This document shows positions 23,221 to 37,166 of a stretch of DNA of 64,000 nucleotides, one piece after another. Numbering within the stretch: position 1 is the stretch's first letter; every line of letters begins with the position of its first letter. Source of the stretch: a phage; the sequence record PZ452606.1; one strand, 5' to 3'. The translations under genes and the position numbers were made by a program. The notes under the pieces were generated by a model, which worked only from the letters and a program-made list of their open reading frames with translations, made no database searches and had not been told where the DNA came from.

Positions 23221-23273
23221 CCTCATGTTATGTCAGTAAGATTACTGTAACACAACACGAGGGACTTGTAAAC
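23221..23273 (-). repeat. 53-bp intergenic repeat, copy A (second copy at 38546-38598, 52/53 identical)
   Basis: CCTCATGTTATGTCAGTAAGA[T/C]TACTGTAACACAACACGAGGGACTTGTAAAC present at both loci immediately 5' of minus-strand genes. Confidence 0.9.
23238..23273 (-). promoter_or_regulatory. T4 early-type promoter candidate (GTTTAC -35-like, TGnTACAGT -10-like) within 53-bp repeat, copy A
   Basis: Minus strand GTTTAC-17 nt-TTACAGT followed by GAGG RBS and the alt.-3-position ORF. Confidence 0.45.
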
Positions 23274-25330
23274 TACATCTTGAACTTTTTAGACATTCCG
23301 TTGATGCTAACCAAAGAAGCCAAGATTTGAGAAACTTCGTTTTCCTCTTCTTTTGATTCTTCTACAAGGAATTGATTAAACCCAGCCATTGGACGAACTT
23401 CACCAGTTTCCATTAGATGATCGCCATCATATACCGATTCTTCTAATTGTTCAGAAGGAGGAACGATTGTGCCTTCGATTAGATACTTGTTATAAGCAGT
23501 TTCTTTCATCATGTACGTGCTTACTTTATTAATCTTCAACAAAATTCCACGCGGTAGAATAACTTCAGCTTCTGATGGAAATCCTGATAAATGACCTGGA
23601 ACGATAACTTTGATTCGTTCAGCCCCTTTAATTACCATACCTACGCTAGTTTCAGCATCTTCATTAGCATATGTAGAATGACTACCCATATGCATCAAAT
23701 CTTCTGCATCAACGGAACCTTCTCCTTCACCAGAAAATACTGCGCCGGAATCATCTAGAGCCATATAGTTTTTACCATGCTCACCGAAGATATTTGGTTT
23801 AAGCGATGTGGATACGAAGTTCTTGAAATAGAACATTTTATTTTCAATATTATGACGTAAAGTTTTAAAGGTAACTTCTTGTCCGCGATAAAGCGTAGTT
23901 CCTGGAGGAAGAACTGAACCTTTAGCAAATGCAGAATCCAACGTCTCGATGTGCTTAATAGCTCGTTCCATATATTCTTCACGGGTAGAATCTGGTTTAC
24001 CCAAGAGGAACGAGTTCATTTCAACATATGAATCTGCACAATAATCTTCAATTACATCAGACTCAGCCTGAGTTAATCCTTTTGGAGTTACTTCGGTGCT
24101 TGCGTATTCATATGCCTGAGCAGCAGATTCATTAATCAATTTATAAATGCTATTCATGACAAATTGAATAATAGCTACTTTTTCGTCTGGCGTGGCTTTA
24201 GAACCTTTAACTAAATCATTGATAATTTTCTTAATAACATCAAAGCTATTAGAAATATTAATGTCAGCTAGATCGCTCAAAATTTTATCGGTTTTATAAT
24301 CAAAAAATTCTTTATTCTTTAAATATTCTTGAGAACCTTGATGTGTTATATCGCTCTGCAGTCTGATAGACGGATCACGTAAACGTGCATGGGCCAATGC
24401 AATATGATTTCGGAAGCTTTCTAGTTCATAATCGTTAGATTTAAAACGAGAAGCACTTCTCATACCACCGATAGCTCCTTTGCCGAAGTTGGAACCAATC
24501 TGAATAACGCCAGAGTTCATTGGTCCTTCTGCTTTATATACCGGAACTTTAGATTCAAACTCTTGATATTTCTTAGCGGCGAAGCTATCGCCCTGGAGTG
24601 AGGCATCGACAGTAGAATATTGAGCTTGCGCTGCTAATCGACGACTAATTTTAGTTTTCTGAATAACAGCTTGATCAGTGCGCTTATCATTTTCTAAAGC
24701 AATAGAAGCAGCAACAGCGACAGCTTTAGGAACAGCATTACCTGTTTTAACGTCTACATAAACATCACCAACCTTTGATTCAACTTTTGTGAATAACTCA
24801 GTTGAAATAGGAGGTACACCTGGAATGTCTTCTAAATTGGCATTTTTACGGTAAACCATAATATATGCGTACTTTTTATCATAGTCCCAGATTTCCTTTA
24901 AAAGAACATATCGACCTGCTCCTTTAGTACGTACTAAACGGTCAGCAATAACTTGCATTTGACGAGCTGCGCCATTTGTTTTACTCTTTAGTACGCGGAA
25001 TAGGCATGCGTCGATTTTATACTGCTTCATTGTTTGAAGAGCAGTATCAAAAACAGCATTAATGACGCCAATTGGATTTCCACCCAAGTTTCTAAGCTTA
25101 ACCAGCGATAATTTCTCGTTGACACCTATCATTACGATATGCATCATTTTATCGCCTGGCTTAACGTTTTTATTCGTATCACCACCAGAGGTGTATGTAC
25201 AAAATCTAAATCCAGGAAGCACGCTTTCTTCGCCGGCTTGAATAGCAAAAATTTGTGGTATTTTATGCTTAGGATTTAAGTTAACAACCGGCGCCGAAGC
25301 GCCGTCAAATAATTCTGTAATAAGTTCCAT
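23273..25330 (-). CDS. Alt-like ADP-ribosyltransferase paralogue (685 aa)
   Basis: N-terminal third near-identical in pattern to the adjacent 698-aa ORF; C-terminal ART R/S/E triad candidates: YRGQ, FVSTSL, PSEAEVILPRG. Confidence 0.8.
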   Translation of the reverse strand: MELITELFDGASAPVVNLNPKHKIPQIFAIQAGEESVLPGFRFCTYTSGGDTNKNVKPGDKMMHIVMIGVNEKLSLVKLRNLGGNPIGVINAVFDTALQTMKQYKIDACLFRVLKSKTNGAARQMQVIADRLVRTKGAGRYVLLKEIWDYDKKYAYIMVYRKNANLEDIPGVPPISTELFTKVESKVGDVYVDVKTGNAVPKAVAVAASIALENDKRTDQAVIQKTKISRRLAAQAQYSTVDASLQGDSFAAKKYQEFESKVPVYKAEGPMNSGVIQIGSNFGKGAIGGMRSASRFKSNDYELESFRNHIALAHARLRDPSIRLQSDITHQGSQEYLKNKEFFDYKTDKILSDLADINISNSFDVIKKIINDLVKGSKATPDEKVAIIQFVMNSIYKLINESAAQAYEYASTEVTPKGLTQAESDVIEDYCADSYVEMNSFLLGKPDSTREEYMERAIKHIETLDSAFAKGSVLPPGTTLYRGQEVTFKTLRHNIENKMFYFKNFVSTSLKPNIFGEHGKNYMALDDSGAVFSGEGEGSVDAEDLMHMGSHSTYANEDAETSVGMVIKGAERIKVIVPGHLSGFPSEAEVILPRGILLKINKVSTYMMKETAYNKYLIEGTIVPPSEQLEESVYDGDHLMETGEVRPMAGFNQFLVEESKEEENEVSQILASLVSINGMSKKFKM

Positions 25331-25333
25331 GAT

Positions 25334-27430
25334 TTATCCTTGAACGAACTTGTAAGGCATGTTTGTAATATCTATGCAAGACGCAATAATTCCAAGAGAT
25401 GATTCTACTTTCTGTTTAACATTTGATGAAACAAATGATGCAAAGTCAACTCTGTCTTCTATTTCAATATCACCTGTCATTGCAACTACTTCGCCAGTTT
25501 CCATTAAACGGTCACCGTCATAAATTACCGATTCGGTGAGTTCTTCGGTGGTCATAACTTCAGCTTGAATGAGTTTTGTATTATTAGACGTGGTTCCGTC
25601 ATTATTAGAAGCATCAGTTATTTTATTAACTTTGACCATCAATCCGCGCGGTAGAATAACTTCGGCTTCTGTTGCTATTCCGAGACTTCCTGGATATACA
25701 ACATTAACTTTATGAGCTCCATCAATTGCCCATCCTATTTGAACTTTAACGTATTCAGGATTTTCTTTATACGCTCTTATTTCGTTTGGATTAATAGTTA
25801 TTCCTTCTTCATTTTTATCAACTGTTAATTCGTTACGAGCTTCTGGTTCTAAAAGACCAATACCAGCATGTGTAATTCCAAAACGTCCAAAAATGATAGG
25901 AGTTAAAGAAGTAGATACAAAATTTCTGAAATAGAACACTTTATTTTTAACTAACGCTTCATATATAGGAGCAGTCATACTTTGAGCACGATAAACTGTA
26001 ATGCCTTCTGGTATACGGTCACCATTTTCAAAAGCTGAATCTAAGTTATTTATAGCAGATTCAATTTCTTTTTCGCTCATTACATCGTATCGTTCTGGAT
26101 TGTAACGACCTAAAAGAAGATTATTAATGTCTGTATATCCTGAACCGCAATATTCTCTAATGCCACGCTTTTGTGATGGAGTATATTTAGAACCATCGCG
26201 GGCAATAGTAATATCAATCATTGGACCGGCACCAATTCCAGAAAAACTGTAAATCATTCGTTTGAGGAATTTAGTTTTTGCTGCGTTCCAGGAATTTTTA
26301 GTTATTTCTTCCCAGACTTCATCTGGTTGCCCTTTACGAGTTTTATTATGTTTATCAAGCCAATTATCTTTATATTCTTCAAAGAATTTATTAACAGCTG
26401 CTGCGTATTTCTCTAAACATTTTATTGAAGTAGTTGGTTCATTTTTGATTGCGTTAAAAATTACATCTTTAATTTTTTCGGAAACTTCATCAACCTCACT
26501 TTTTGAAAAGAATTTATAGTCATAGTGAAGTTCATTCGCAGTTCCTTCGGCAATAATTTTTGCTGCCTTAGTTTTAGAAGCTAATGAATTAATTCCAAGC
26601 TTCATTTCTTCTGCTTCGGGAATTAAAGGAGCGGTAGCAGGTTTATTGAAATTAGCTGCGGTAGATTCATACTTCTGGAATAATTCACTTTCAAATCTAG
26701 AAGATTCCAATGATTGACTTTGCGCAATTGCTCTACGGGAAATTTTAACTTTAACGATTACAGCTTGGTCAGAACGTTTATCATTTTCCTGCGCAATAGA
26801 TGCTGCAATTGCCTCATTTTTAGTTACTTGGGCTCCAGTATCTTTATTGATATAAACATCACCGACTTTCGATTCAACTTTAGTAAAGAGCTCGGTACTA
26901 ATTTCTGGAACTCCCGGAATGTCTTCTAGTGATACATTTTTGCGATGTATAAGAATATATGCATACTTTTTATCATAATCCCAGAGTTCCTTAAGAAGGA
27001 CGTATCTGCCACCTGAACGACTACGGATAAGTCTATCAGCAATAACTTGAATTTGTCGAGCTTGACCAGCGGTTTTAGACTTAAGAATACGAAGCATACA
27101 AGCATCAATTTTATACTGACGCATTGTTTGCATTGCAACAGTAAAAACTGAATTGATATAATTAATTGGGCTTGGACCAAGACCTTTTAATTTAGCAATT
27201 GAACCTTTAGCAGTTAATGTAAAAGGAACAATATGCATCATTTTATCGCCCATCTTTAAATCGCGATTAGTATCACCTCCAGATGTATAGGTACATAAAC
27301 GAAAGCCTGGCTGTTCAATTGCATCATCAACGTGAACTGAAAAAATTTGCGGTATTTTCTTCTTTGGATTTAAGTTTGTAATCGGAAGAGTAGTATCTTC
27401 GTCAAATAATTCTGTAATAAGTTCCATCAT
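25334..27430 (-). CDS. alt: Alt-like ADP-ribosyltransferase (698 aa; probable alt)
   Basis: Position next to gene 30; ART motifs YRAQ, FVSTSL, ATEAEVILPRG; N-terminus MMELITELFDE; minus-strand TATAAATA late promoter upstream; which paralogue corresponds to T4 alt is uncertain. Confidence 0.8.
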   Translation of the reverse strand: MMELITELFDEDTTLPITNLNPKKKIPQIFSVHVDDAIEQPGFRLCTYTSGGDTNRDLKMGDKMMHIVPFTLTAKGSIAKLKGLGPSPINYINSVFTVAMQTMRQYKIDACMLRILKSKTAGQARQIQVIADRLIRSRSGGRYVLLKELWDYDKKYAYILIHRKNVSLEDIPGVPEISTELFTKVESKVGDVYINKDTGAQVTKNEAIAASIAQENDKRSDQAVIVKVKISRRAIAQSQSLESSRFESELFQKYESTAANFNKPATAPLIPEAEEMKLGINSLASKTKAAKIIAEGTANELHYDYKFFSKSEVDEVSEKIKDVIFNAIKNEPTTSIKCLEKYAAAVNKFFEEYKDNWLDKHNKTRKGQPDEVWEEITKNSWNAAKTKFLKRMIYSFSGIGAGPMIDITIARDGSKYTPSQKRGIREYCGSGYTDINNLLLGRYNPERYDVMSEKEIESAINNLDSAFENGDRIPEGITVYRAQSMTAPIYEALVKNKVFYFRNFVSTSLTPIIFGRFGITHAGIGLLEPEARNELTVDKNEEGITINPNEIRAYKENPEYVKVQIGWAIDGAHKVNVVYPGSLGIATEAEVILPRGLMVKVNKITDASNNDGTTSNNTKLIQAEVMTTEELTESVIYDGDRLMETGEVVAMTGDIEIEDRVDFASFVSSNVKQKVESSLGIIASCIDITNMPYKFVQG

Positions 27431-27481: not shown

Positions 27482-27668
27482 AGTAATCTAGTGGTAAGAG
27501 AGTACGATATATTTCAAACTTTGGTCCTTTTTCATAGGCATCAAATGTTTCTGTAAATTTATTATAAGCGTATGCATCTACAAATTCGAGAATGACTTGT
27601 GATACAGAAGTAGAAACATCTCCACCTTCTTTTTGAGCAATGACAATTGTTTCTAAGTAAGCTTTCAT
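27480..27668 (-). CDS. hypothetical small protein
   Basis: 62-aa ORF overlapping the 3' end of gene 30 by 4 nt. Confidence 0.5.
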   Translation of the reverse strand: MKAYLETIVIAQKEGGDVSTSVSQVILEFVDAYAYNKFTETFDAYEKGPKFEIYRTLLPLDY

Positions 27669-29128
27669 AAACCAGTTACCTCATGAAAATCGCCAAATAC
27701 ATCTTCGAACGTATTAGCTTTAGTTTTATCTTCACGTAAACGAATCGCAATCGGAAGAAATAATTTAACGTAATCAGTGCGGCCATCAGATTTTAACCAA
27801 CCGTTGCATTCGCACTCTAGAATTTTTCCAATATAATAATTTTGGTTTTCCATAATGCGAGTACGGTCAAGTTCATGCGATTTTACACCGGCTTTATCTT
27901 TTAAGCCTGAACCAGCATTTACTTTAATTTTTCCACACTCTGACTCAAGAATAAATCCACCTGCTTTAGTAGGGTCTTTACGGTGAGGATAAATTCCTAC
28001 AATTTTTAAATCAACATCAATTACTTCTTTAAATTTATAGAGATTTTTTGAACGAGCATTTTCCCATAATCCATCGATATTTTTGAGAATAATACCTTCA
28101 AGACCTTGGTCAATATACTTTTTATAAATTACCTTAGCTTCATCTAGGTTATTTACTACCTGGTTTTCAATTAAAATTACTTTATCATAGCCTGATGTCA
28201 TTTGTTCTAGTTTAGAAAAACGTACATCATATTTTAAACGAAATGCTGGAAGACCGTATATTTCTACTAATGGAACATAATCCCAGACTTGAAACTTCAT
28301 GCATTGAGCTTCTTTTTCTGAAATAGTTCCCTTTAAAGATTTATTAGCGATTCCATTAGAAGCAGTACGTGATTCAGCTACTTCGGCGAATTCTTTAGCT
28401 TTACTAATTTCAGGATAAGCATCAAAAAGAAAATCTAGGCCTTCTGGTTCCTTTTTAACTTGCTCATGGTATACCAATTCGCCATCAATTAACACACCTT
28501 CTGGATGAATCTGGCGGGCTTCAGCGGTCATTTTGATTAACTCTTCCTTAAGAAGATCTAATCCTAGATATTCATTACCGGCTCGTGATAAAAGACGAAC
28601 ATCATCTAATTCATCACCTCTGACTTCAGCAAAGCACCGAGCTCCATCAGCTTTTAATTGGGCAAAGGCTGGAAATTTGATATTCTTATTAATGCCTTTT
28701 TCATCATAAGAACTTGCCAGCATTTGAGGTTGTTCAGGAATTAAACCTGGCCAAACTTTATTTGCAATAGATACTGATGCACCGCATTCAAGGTCTCGCA
28801 TCATCACCCGACGCAAAACTTCAACATCATCTTTTTTACCGTCAGTAATATATCCAGTTAATTCCTCAATTGCCGCATTTCCAGTCAATTTCCGAGTAGC
28901 TAACGTGAATTCAATGAAGTCAAGCATATCGGTAAGAGTCAACATTCCAAAACTCTGGGTAGCAATACCCGGTTTAGGCCATTTCTTGATATAATACTGT
29001 AACCCACGAGAATAAGTCAGACGATATACTCGTTTAAGCAATTCATTATCTTTATTCTTTTCAAGAATTGCTTGCTTCTGCTTAGTTGAACCAATAGATG
29101 CTATTTCGTTCAGAATTTTAAGAATCAT
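27665..29128 (-). CDS. 30: ATP-dependent DNA ligase gp30
   Basis: 487-aa ORF; adenylation lysine motif K-A-D-G (FAQLKADGARCFAE); length matches T4 DNA ligase. Confidence 0.95.
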   Translation of the reverse strand: MILKILNEIASIGSTKQKQAILEKNKDNELLKRVYRLTYSRGLQYYIKKWPKPGIATQSFGMLTLTDMLDFIEFTLATRKLTGNAAIEELTGYITDGKKDDVEVLRRVMMRDLECGASVSIANKVWPGLIPEQPQMLASSYDEKGINKNIKFPAFAQLKADGARCFAEVRGDELDDVRLLSRAGNEYLGLDLLKEELIKMTAEARQIHPEGVLIDGELVYHEQVKKEPEGLDFLFDAYPEISKAKEFAEVAESRTASNGIANKSLKGTISEKEAQCMKFQVWDYVPLVEIYGLPAFRLKYDVRFSKLEQMTSGYDKVILIENQVVNNLDEAKVIYKKYIDQGLEGIILKNIDGLWENARSKNLYKFKEVIDVDLKIVGIYPHRKDPTKAGGFILESECGKIKVNAGSGLKDKAGVKSHELDRTRIMENQNYYIGKILECECNGWLKSDGRTDYVKLFLPIAIRLREDKTKANTFEDVFGDFHEVTGL

Positions 29129-29394
29129 TGTTCATCCTTTAGAGTTTGGTTTACAGCTCTATTATAAATCAATTCATCATTAAGCTCAGTCAAAGACCTG
29201 TGGTACGTGGTTCTAACTTTATTTCCTTGCATCCAGTGCTTGACGTAAATGAAACCTTGCTCTACACATTTTTTAAAAATTCGTTCGTCTTTTTGAGCTC
29301 GGAATTCTGGATTGCATCTAAAAAATTGATTTACGTGACCGTAATCACGTGTAGTATTACCTTCATTTTCATAAATAGTGTGAACGACAAACAT
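29125..29394 (-). CDS. hypothetical protein (30.1 position)
   Basis: 89-aa ORF, translationally coupled to gene 30. Confidence 0.55.
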   Translation of the reverse strand: MFVVHTIYENEGNTTRDYGHVNQFFRCNPEFRAQKDERIFKKCVEQGFIYVKHWMQGNKVRTTYHRSLTELNDELIYNRAVNQTLKDEQ

Positions 29395-30230
29395 TAGAAT
29401 GCTCCTTGGAAAATATTATCACCACTAGTAGGTCTATTATACAAATACTCTATGCCACCGGGTTTAATATAGTTCCATGTCTGAAACGGATGCGTCTGAT
29501 ATGGATGATATGGATTATAAGGATTAAACCCAGGAGTTCTCCAGGTAGTGTTCCAAGGAAAAGAATCGTTTTTGATCATCTTCTCAATTACATCTTTTAT
29601 AGCTTTTTCACGATCAAAACTTTCTTTAATTTCCTTCGATGGAAAAAGCTTATTCTCGACATCATTCCATGTATAAACTCGCTGTGCAGTTTTTGGAATA
29701 CTGTCACGCTCTCCTCGAGCCATCCAATAAACAGGAACATTTAATATTTCACTCGCGTGATCGCAGTGGTGAGCGAGATCGTCAATATAACAAATTACGT
29801 TATATTTTTCTTTTGCCTTTTTGAACAGCTCTTCTTTTGAAGAATCATGACTACACATCAGTACTTCTGAGAAGGCACCAGGAAAAAGAGCATTCAAATT
29901 AAATTGACGATTCAGCAGAGCGTCAATAGAATCACCCAATGCTGTAACAGCTACAAAATTATAATCTTCTTTTAATTTGTTAATTACACACAGGGCATCT
30001 TTATATGGAGACAAGTAACGAATAAAATCTGAACGATTATATTTTTCAATTAACTTGACACCAAGTTCTTCATCACAATTAAAGAGTTTACCAGGAGAAA
30101 TAAATTTCTCATCTTGGATCATTTTTAAAATATGTTCTAACGGAAGATTATATTTCTGAGCAAAATAAGGAAGGCCTGATTGCCAGCTTAAACATACTCC
30201 ATCAATATCAGTTAAAATAGTAGGCTTCAT
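29394..30230 (-). CDS. HAD-superfamily-like hydrolase candidate (30.2 position)
   Basis: 278-aa ORF; N-terminal ILTDIDGV (HAD motif I DxDG[TV]), later FVAVTAL, KAKEKY and CYIDD match HAD motifs II-IV. Confidence 0.6.
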   Translation of the reverse strand: MKPTILTDIDGVCLSWQSGLPYFAQKYNLPLEHILKMIQDEKFISPGKLFNCDEELGVKLIEKYNRSDFIRYLSPYKDALCVINKLKEDYNFVAVTALGDSIDALLNRQFNLNALFPGAFSEVLMCSHDSSKEELFKKAKEKYNVICYIDDLAHHCDHASEILNVPVYWMARGERDSIPKTAQRVYTWNDVENKLFPSKEIKESFDREKAIKDVIEKMIKNDSFPWNTTWRTPGFNPYNPYHPYQTHPFQTWNYIKPGGIEYLYNRPTSGDNIFQGAF

Positions 30231-30691
30231 AGAGAGTCTCTTAATAGGTTTAACACATCAATAAATTCAGCTTCGGTTAGTATTGTATCATCTTTTGTTA
30301 GACCACTAGCCATGCTGTGCTTCAAAACTTTTCCTTTCGAGGCTAGTAATGCATCACGAAAGCCCTTGTTTTGAATCGCTGCTTCAAAATATGCATTTGT
30401 GTATAATTCTTTCCACGCCGGGGAGTATCTTGAAAACGGAACTCCAAGCCAGAAGAGGGTCCCACGGTCCTGAGCTCTAGCATAAGACCTTCCAGCTTGT
30501 TGGGCGGCAAGCCCGGATAACCCAAATATACGACGTTGTTGTTCAACATTTTTCACCTTGCATCCTTGGAGGAATCCTTCAAGACCTCCAAATTGAATAC
30601 CATCCATAACGAAAGGCCATTGGGCGAAATTACTTAATGCACATGATGGCCACCTAAAATTACTTCTAATCTCTAACTCAGACATTTTCAA
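30227..30691 (-). CDS. NADAR/YbiA-like domain protein candidate (30.3 position)
   Basis: 154-aa ORF; LSNFAQWPFVMDGIQFGGLEGFLQGCK matches the SNFAAWP..DG....SEHYFQAQK signature of E. coli YbiA as I recall it. Confidence 0.6.
   Translation of the reverse strand: MKMSELEIRSNFRWPSCALSNFAQWPFVMDGIQFGGLEGFLQGCKVKNVEQQRRIFGLSGLAAQQAGRSYARAQDRGTLFWLGVPFSRYSPAWKELYTNAYFEAAIQNKGFRDALLASKGKVLKHSMASGLTKDDTILTEAEFIDVLNLLRDSL

Positions 30692-35962: not shown

Positions 35963-35963
<1 letters not shown>
35766..35963 (-). CDS. hypothetical protein (cd.5 position)
   Basis: 65-aa ORF. Confidence 0.5.

Positions 35964-37166
<1,203 letters not shown>

Follow-up and report, generated by a model that had tools for sequence, protein, structure and literature searches.

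T4 is the best-studied large phage, yet its gene 30.2 still carries the label "hypothetical protein" in RefSeq and is called "hypothetical" in a genome-wide screen from 2025. What does this gene, which lies close to the DNA ligase gene, encode? We addressed the question in a phage DNA of 64,000 nucleotides (sequence record PZ452606.1), the whole of which is referred to here as the window. An open reading frame (ORF) at 29394-30230 on the minus strand encodes 278 amino acids (aa) plus a stop codon, its boundaries being exactly those given by a first-pass annotation made from the DNA letters. The genome is that of a Tequatrovirus (T4-like). The DNA of the ORF matches 503 phage records and is 97.8-98.9% identical to the Tequatrovirus records listed (Kha5h, RB3 and T4-derived strains), and its surroundings in the window comprise the T4 genes alt, 30, 30.1, 30.3, rIII, 31, cd and pseT/Pnk. 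Because of this identity and these neighbours, we identify the ORF, on sequence grounds, as the homologue of T4 gene 30.2 (T4p204, NP_049815.1, 837 nt). The protein falls into PHROG 420 (E = 4e-93), a family labelled "unknown function", and a literature search for T4 30.1/30.2/30.3 or gp30.2 found nothing. A few automatic annotations already give a HAD assignment to 30.2 homologues.

The first-pass annotation had proposed a HAD-superfamily phosphatase or nucleotidase, and on the evidence described below we are highly confident that 30.2 is a HAD phosphatase. It is probably a competent Mg2+-dependent phosphomonoesterase of a phage lineage that has diverged within the NT5C family, which would act most probably on (deoxy)nucleoside monophosphates ((d)NMPs); for the (d)NMP substrate by itself, which we infer, our preference is a mild one. 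Confidence in any specific biological role is low. Gene 30.2 encodes an uncharacterised member of an ordinary, already known enzyme class, and to our knowledge an NT5C-type enzyme was previously not known in T4. The placement in the NT5C branch, together with 1363 cluster representatives at E <= 0.001, provides a concrete and cheaply testable hypothesis. A nucleotide phosphatase whose gene T4-like phages keep next to that for the ligase could bear on the balancing of nucleotide pools, the exclusion of unwanted nucleotides or the evasion of nucleotide-based immunity, the last with T5 Dmp as a recent precedent.

Searches of Pfam and NCBIfam with the single sequence of 30.2 gave no match, in Pfam not even at E <= 1, and therefore the assignment to the HAD family needs a profile or a structure model. 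An AlphaFold2 model was built with an alignment of 45 T4-like homologues; its mean predicted local distance difference test (pLDDT) score was 83, and the block means across residues 1-190 ranged from 91 to 98. The core strands in the model comprise residues 4-7, 91-96, 120-125, 145-150 and 167-169, and the core is predicted to be a three-layer Rossmannoid HAD fold. Four helices (16-26, 32-40, 46-49 and 54-65) are inserted directly after strand 1, ahead of the first core helix (77-86), and this insertion is, as modelled, a C1 cap, the hallmark of subfamily I HAD proteins. In a Foldseek comparison with the PDB, the cdN structure 2jao came first (E = 9.6e-9), then 2i7d and 3bwv, with mdN entries following, at template modelling (TM) scores normalised to the target of 0.65-0.70. 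The named neighbours of the model in a viral structure library were mostly called "5' nucleotidase" or "nucleotidase".

The conservation of the putative catalytic residues was assessed in two alignments. A homologue search over 5.8 billion proteins returned 100 sequences, and those with names came nearly all from T4-like phages; the close alignment consists of 45 T4-like 30.2 homologues. A profile search over 1.84 billion representatives yielded the 1363 relatives mentioned above, mostly of 195-215 aa. The distant alignment consists of 97 distant relatives that are 20-53% identical to the query, with a mean column identity of 21%. The features concerned are the following; the codons of all four motifs were read off the DNA.

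29643-30230, minus strand: predicted HAD core with C1 cap (residues 1-196) according to the AlphaFold2 model; the domain of the family profile is likewise residues 1-196.
30195-30209, minus strand: motif I, DIDGV (residues 8-12, D8-I-D10-G-V), at the C-terminal end of strand 1.
30183-30185, minus strand: W16, eight residues past the nucleophile, where the cap begins, invariant in the close alignment and conserved to at least 90% in the distant one.
29943-29945, minus strand: motif II, T96 in FVAVTAL, at the end of strand 2, conserved to at least 90% in both alignments.
29835-29837, minus strand: motif III, K132 in HDSSKEE (SSK), at the N-terminus of helix 133-142 and present in every sequence of both alignments (45/45 and 97/97).
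29778-29789, minus strand: motif IV, YIDD (residues 148-151, with D150-D151), at the end of strand 4.

The close alignment has D8, D10, G11 and K132 in every sequence and T96, D150 and D151 in at least 90%. The distant alignment retains D8, D10, R108 and K132 without exception and G11, V12, W16, T96, N111 and D151 at 90% or more. Three of the four motifs named by the first-pass annotation (DIDGV, the threonine of FVAVTAL and YIDD) are thereby genuine as far as sequence comparison can tell, with a conservation far beyond chance. The fourth had to be moved: the lysines of KKAKEKY (residues 137-143), proposed as motif III, lie in a variable stretch, and the conserved lysine is K132, 5-10 residues upstream. 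All four motifs occupy canonical positions of the Rossmannoid fold, as judged by secondary structure and alignment. D8 and D10 follow directly on strand 4-7, T96 ends strand 2, the helix preceding strand 4 has K132 at its N-terminus, and the two aspartates end strand 4; the placement of motifs II to IV agrees between the model, the conservation in both alignments and the alignment with 3bwv. An invariant aspartate two residues after the nucleophile is a mark of HAD phosphatases and mutases, as opposed to dehalogenases and ATPases. D8 is presumed to be the nucleophile and D10 the general acid/base. R108, N111, S18, Y64, S67 and D78 are invariant residues specific to the lineage.

A catalytic cycle can be outlined by analogy with general HAD chemistry, from which it is taken over. 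D8 would attack the phosphate of the substrate, which gives an aspartyl-phosphate intermediate, while D10 would protonate the leaving group and then activate a water molecule. T96 and K132 would hold the phosphate, D150 and D151 the Mg2+ ion, and the four-helix C1 cap would close over the active site. Given that the cap is expected to close in this way, a small molecule is the most likely substrate.

Which family of capped HAD enzymes 30.2 belongs to became apparent as the profiles were broadened. The best PDB match of the single sequence, cdN 2jao, was insignificant (E = 0.92), the profile of the close alignment raised this match to E = 0.064, and the profile of the distant alignment matched 3bwv, a putative 5'(3')-deoxyribonucleotidase of S. 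epidermidis, along its full length at E = 1.1e-6 (profile 1-194, chain 2-177). In the latter alignment, the DxD, Thr, Lys and IDD of 3bwv are in register with D8/D10, T96, K132 and Y-I-D150-D151 (LIDD in 3bwv), which, along with the Rossmannoid model, bears out the membership in the HAD superfamily that had been proposed from motifs; both a profile match and a model had been named as checks. D8/D10 align with the DMD of cdN and 3bwv. Furthermore, 38 of the 97 distant relatives match Pfam NT5C (PF06941) at E <= 0.01, and one of the relatives, P0200, reaches 34.1 bits where the cut-off is 24.8.

The likeness extends to the entry into the cap, where DIDGVCLSWQSGL of 30.2 is aligned with NMDGVLADFESGL of cdN, both with the single sequence and with the profile of the close alignment. 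W16 there corresponds to the Phe in DGVLADFESGL of cdN, a residue which we take to stack on the base in cdN and mdN structures. Pi-stacking has been described in general terms as important in HAD 5'-nucleotidases (PMC3946280). Overall, 30.2 and the NT5C enzymes (human and mouse cdN, mdN, and 3bwv) share a HAD core of about 190-200 aa with a four-helix C1 cap, a motif I of the form DxDGV followed by an aromatic residue at position +8 from the nucleophile and then xSGL, a threonine in motif II, a lysine in motif III and (I/L)IDD as motif IV, and NT5C structures are the best matches of 30.2 in fold and in profile. In contrast, the identity to solved NT5C structures is just 17-20%, and the window protein stays under the Pfam threshold. 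We conclude from these sequence comparisons that 30.2/PHROG 420 is probably a large, diverged offshoot of the NT5C family that phages carry. Of the two subfamilies suggested by the first-pass annotation, the 5'(3')-deoxyribonucleotidases are therefore supported, and the Pnk-phosphatase-like enzymes are not, as detailed below.

The surroundings of the gene were then compared with those of its relatives. In the window, 30.2 is flanked by the following genes.

30227-30691, minus strand: gene 30.3 (AdfN, NADAR family; PF08010, E = 2.7e-70), upstream of 30.2.
29125-29394, minus strand: gene 30.1 (DUF3045; PF11243, E = 2.9e-64), downstream of 30.2.
27665-29128, minus strand: gene 30, encoding gp30, the ATP-dependent DNA ligase (PF01068), downstream of 30.2.

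Start and stop codons overlap throughout this series: the TGA stop of 30.3 with the ATG of 30.2 (ATGA, 30227-30230), the stop of 30.2 with the start of 30.1 (TAATG, 29392-29396) and 30.1 with gene 30 (ATGA, 29125-29128). This suggests translational coupling of 30.3, 30.2, 30.1 and the ligase gene. We examined 77 related viral contigs, all from Straboviridae with a broadly conserved gene order. In 71 of them the HAD gene is followed downstream, on the same strand, by the ligase gene, which starts 0.6-2.1 kb past the HAD start; ligase identity across the loci goes down to 36%. The other six include one locus cut at its end and four with distant HADs of 25-28% identity. Gene 30.3 is kept in just 36 and gene 30.1 in just 24 of the 77 loci, and the HAD-ligase pairing persists in a Shewanella-phage-type contig without either. 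In the distant contig L003 the pair is also close, in reversed order with the ligase first. Such a pairing may point to a common transcription unit or function but is no proof of either, and it is weak evidence because all loci come from Straboviridae with their conserved gene order.

Several side observations concern the same region. P0012, a protein of 302 aa encoded on a contig of 1378 bp, consists of a 30.2 core fused in frame to a 30.1/DUF3045 domain; the two genes may be truly joined here, or else a frameshift or an assembly error may have made an arrangement like that of contig L023 look fused. P0076 of Acinetobacter phage AB1I1M-1 (216 aa), a HAD of the 30.2 type, is labelled 'DNA ligase' in its source record, probably a misannotation taken over from the adjacent gene. 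The window also contains two full-length tandem genes for Alt-like ADP-ribosyltransferases of 685 and 698 aa with similar N-termini (23273-25330 and 25334-27430, minus strand); the T4 RefSeq record has a single alt gene plus alt.-1 and alt.-2, remnants of an old duplication.

Genetic data on 30.2 are available from T4, and the following statements refer to the LB, M9 and DarTG1 conditions of a genome-wide transposon screen published as a preprint. Gene 30.2, listed there as "hypothetical", was non-essential, with insertions at 72/72 sites, and these were neutral in M9 versus LB (log2 fold change -0.10, p = 0.61) as well as under DarTG1 (-0.12, p = 0.61). The neighbouring 30.3 encodes the NADAR enzyme AdfN, which undoes the ADP-ribosylation of DNA by DarT1, and insertions in 30.3 dropped about 150-fold under DarTG1 (log2 fold change -7.25). 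Insertions in 30.4, just upstream of 30.3, were depleted as well (log2 fold change -1.79, adjusted p = 0.014; all 10.1101/2025.11.20.689424). A polar effect on 30.3 could account for the latter, the downstream 30.2 being neutral. Given the neutrality of its insertions, 30.2 was dispensable in LB, in M9 and under DarTG1 and stood outside the function of AdfN there. A functional link of 30.2 with AdfN and DarTG1 was considered and rejected, as the insertions in 30.2 had no effect in these data.

Several points weigh against a (d)NMP phosphatase of the NT5C type. T4 reuses host deoxynucleotides, and a general dNMP phosphatase would be wasteful in this context; we know of no 5'-dNMPase activity described for T4. 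The window protein falls below every Pfam and NCBIfam model, NT5C included, and its membership comes from transitive and profile evidence. Moreover, R108 and N111, invariant in the 30.2 lineage, are not conserved in 3bwv, and the specificity of 30.2 may for this reason differ from that of the known NT5C enzymes. The clustering of the motif residues in three dimensions is deduced from secondary structure and alignment and should be seen as a prediction. Finally, in the transposon data the 30.2 mutants were free of defects in LB, in M9 and under DarTG1, which leaves a biological role without a phenotype to anchor it.

The position of the gene invites the idea that 30.2 is a polynucleotide 3'-phosphatase which repairs nicks in DNA so that the neighbouring ligase can act, and thus a second end-processing enzyme beside Pnk, as the first-pass annotation had suggested. 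The HAD gene is directly upstream of the ligase gene far more constantly (71/77 loci) than 30.3 (36) or 30.1 (24) is retained, the two remain close even where their order is reversed, and NT5C enzymes, as their family name indicates, hydrolyse 3'-phosphates too. The window offers a direct comparison, since its Pnk gene lies 6 kb away (35963-36871). The phosphatase half of T4 Pnk (pseT; Pfam HAD_PNKP) and 30.2 both belong to the HAD superfamily and both have a DxDG[TV] nucleophile motif, but the former is capless, fused to a kinase and active on polynucleotide 3' ends, whereas 30.2 has a predicted C1 cap and no kinase domain. An hhalign comparison of 30.2 with the Pnk of the window covered just 25 columns around motif I at a probability of 12%, only one of the 97 distant relatives touches HAD_PNKP, and a paralogy of 30.2 and Pnk was rejected on account of this restriction to motif I. 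Known polynucleotide phosphatases such as T4 Pnk and PNKP are capless, while a four-helix C1 cap is typical of small-molecule HADs; the end-processing role is less likely because the predicted cap points to a small-molecule substrate, and the adjacency to the ligase, drawn from syntenic Straboviridae, does little to offset this. We consider such a role improbable.

A HAD phosphatase acting on a small molecule other than a nucleotide, namely a sugar, a cofactor or an ADP-ribose-derived phosphate linked to AdfN, is unlikely as well, if less so. The lineage-invariant R108 and N111 that are absent from 3bwv would fit such a substrate, as would the start/stop overlap with 30.3/AdfN, and one source labels a 30.2 homologue 'FMN phosphatase YigB'. 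On the other hand, all links at the sequence level lead to NT5C (38/97 members, 3bwv at E = 1e-6, and the DGV..[WF]xSGL cap entry), roughly half of the loci with 30.2 lack 30.3, and in the transposon data insertions in 30.2 were neutral under the very DarTG1 challenge in which those in 30.3 fell 150-fold. Compatible with the (d)NMP phosphatase chemistry that we favour, and concerning its biological role, is the proposal that 30.2 serves in counter-defence by lowering a deoxynucleotide or a nucleotide-derived immune signal or precursor. Its precedent is T5 Dmp, a HAD dNMP phosphatase that depletes dAMP and so blocks Kongming immunity (bioRxiv 10.1101/2024.12.20.629578). T4-like phages encode a dNMP kinase (gene 1) that triggers such systems, 30.2 adjoins the proven anti-defence gene 30.3/AdfN, and in the transposon screen growth on laboratory K-12 did not require it, which is how accessory anti-defence genes usually behave. 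Both Dmp and 30.2 are phage-encoded HADs with a DxDG[TV] motif I, 30.2 has a weak profile match to the Dmp family over motifs II-IV, and Dmp is a functional precedent in phages as a proven dNMP phosphatase with an anti-defence role. It belongs, however, to a different HAD branch and is a pre-early gene in the terminal repeat, whereas 30.2 adjoins the ligase gene. With hhalign, the 30.2 family profile aligned with T5 Dmp over 27 columns at motif I only (probability 3%), so that orthology was rejected and 30.2 is not a Dmp homologue beyond the shared superfamily. Dmp (L005:124-858) matches PHROG 415 over its full length (E = 3.6e-57), and the match of 30.2 to PHROG 415, partial and weak (E = 0.0056, residues 74-163), is therefore a weak match to the Dmp family, which we count in favour of the (d)NMP phosphatase reading. 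PHROG 415 is, judged by sequence, the family of the T5 Dmp dNMP phosphatase, and its label 'polynucleotide kinase' is misleading for annotation pipelines. Since 30.2 had no effect under DarTG1 or in the library comparison (10.1101/2025.11.20.689424), and since almost every T4-like phage, across many hosts, retains the gene, a pattern that fits housekeeping better than an arms race, we assign counter-defence the lowest probability among these proposals.

Beyond the presumed catalytic core, the protein carries a C-terminal extension, in which the first-pass annotation had noticed an unusual Pro/Tyr-rich composition. This is real and includes the stretch NPYNPYHPY, encoded by a tandem repeat with a 9-bp unit. 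The extension has the following parts.

29397-29642, minus strand: C-terminal tail (residues 197-278), in which a single helix (200-220) leads into a disordered Pro/Trp/Tyr-rich linker.
29499-29526, minus strand: tandem repeat, 9 bp x 3.1, encoding NPY-NPY-HPY, i.e. (N/H)PY three times (residues 236-244; codons of NPYNPYHPY at 29499-29525).
29427-29453, minus strand: short conserved peptide I260-E-Y-L-Y-N-R-P-T268, which recurs in otherwise unalignable tails.

The pLDDT of the AlphaFold2 model falls below 50 at residues 228-231, 239-259 and 266-278. Most of the 243 family members that were compared do without such an extension: in 163 no more than 15 residues follow the core, and tails of at least 30 aa occur in 63. 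Some phage 30.2 homologues have a disordered tail of 80-130 aa, whereas the solved NT5C chains (about 170-200 residues) have none. The tails of the family are Pro/Trp/Tyr-rich, hypervariable and mutually unalignable. Close relatives of the window protein read NPYNHLYHPY or NPYNPYHPYYTHSHQMHPF in the repeat region, and these differences suggest that the tail evolves by slippage. The tail is a flexible, lineage-specific appendage.

The short peptide sits 9-19 residues from the protein end across the family and 14 residues from it in the window protein. Its variants are IEYLY (window), GTGIEYLNRQPT (Klebsiella-/Citrobacter-phage types), LEWYYNQP, LRAYY or LKAYY (Enterobacter-phage type) and LRA[ST]F, and YVLLNKVTAND may be a further one. 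A strict pattern of the peptide occurred in 21 of the 63 tails, compared with 1.3 +/- 1.1 in shuffled tails, a significance that is overstated by the kinship of the sequences. Two IMG/VR contigs (L010 and L011), whose 30.2 is 93-94% identical to that of the window, read GDAGYFNRLT where the window has GGIEYLYNRPT; the peptide can thus change even between near-identical phages, possibly by way of a compensated frameshift.

The combination of a variable linker with a conserved end-peptide is also found in the epitopes by which T4 gp43, gp55 and gp33 bind the gp45 clamp (PMC2988020). In these ligands, as in the tail of 30.2, a hypervariable linker leads to a brief, conserved peptide near the C-terminus that is hydrophobic and acidic, and IEYLY resembles the LDFLF, LDFLY and LDFLL within SLDFLFG, SLDFLYEAND and TLDFLL, the epitopes used for comparison. 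Other 30.2 tails (LRAYY, LKAYY, LRATF), however, are basic at the position of the acidic residue in the clamp epitope, and in contrast to the C-terminal clamp epitopes the 30.2 peptide lies 14 residues before the end in a family whose members are mostly tailless. A loose clamp-type pattern, when applied to the last 30 residues of the window ORFs, found only gp33 and 30.2, but the pattern was post hoc and about one chance match is expected among six-frame ORFs. No co-variation was seen in Enterobacter phage CIP9, where gp33 keeps ...TNTLDFLL while the 30.2 tail reads SDLRAYYGEVK. Docking of the tail onto the clamp, already uncertain from the sequences, is weakened by this comparison and appears unlikely.

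The tail probably docks the enzyme onto a partner. A more specific version, to which we give a small probability, is that the end-peptide anchors a nucleotide phosphatase on machinery of the phage or the host (for instance the replisome or clamp, the DNA ligase or the dNTP-synthesising complex), so that nucleotides would be dephosphorylated locally and not in bulk. If this were true, the enzyme could keep a particular non-canonical or signalling nucleotide in check at replication forks, or it could serve in a Dmp-like counter-defence. An NT5C-type enzyme would then have been put to use in a novel manner, and the persistence of the gene next to the ligase gene would be accounted for.

Some distant relatives combine the HAD domain with further parts. 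The extra parts of P0150, P0204, P0102 and P0140 had no match in Pfam, and a PDB sequence search with the extra domain of P0150 likewise gave none. P0150 (591 aa; L086:6001-7776, on a marine contig of 58 kb) carries an N-terminal domain that matches PHROG 24943 'DNA polymerase' in addition to its 30.2-like HAD, and the same contig encodes a family-A DNA polymerase 3.4 kb upstream of the P0150 gene.

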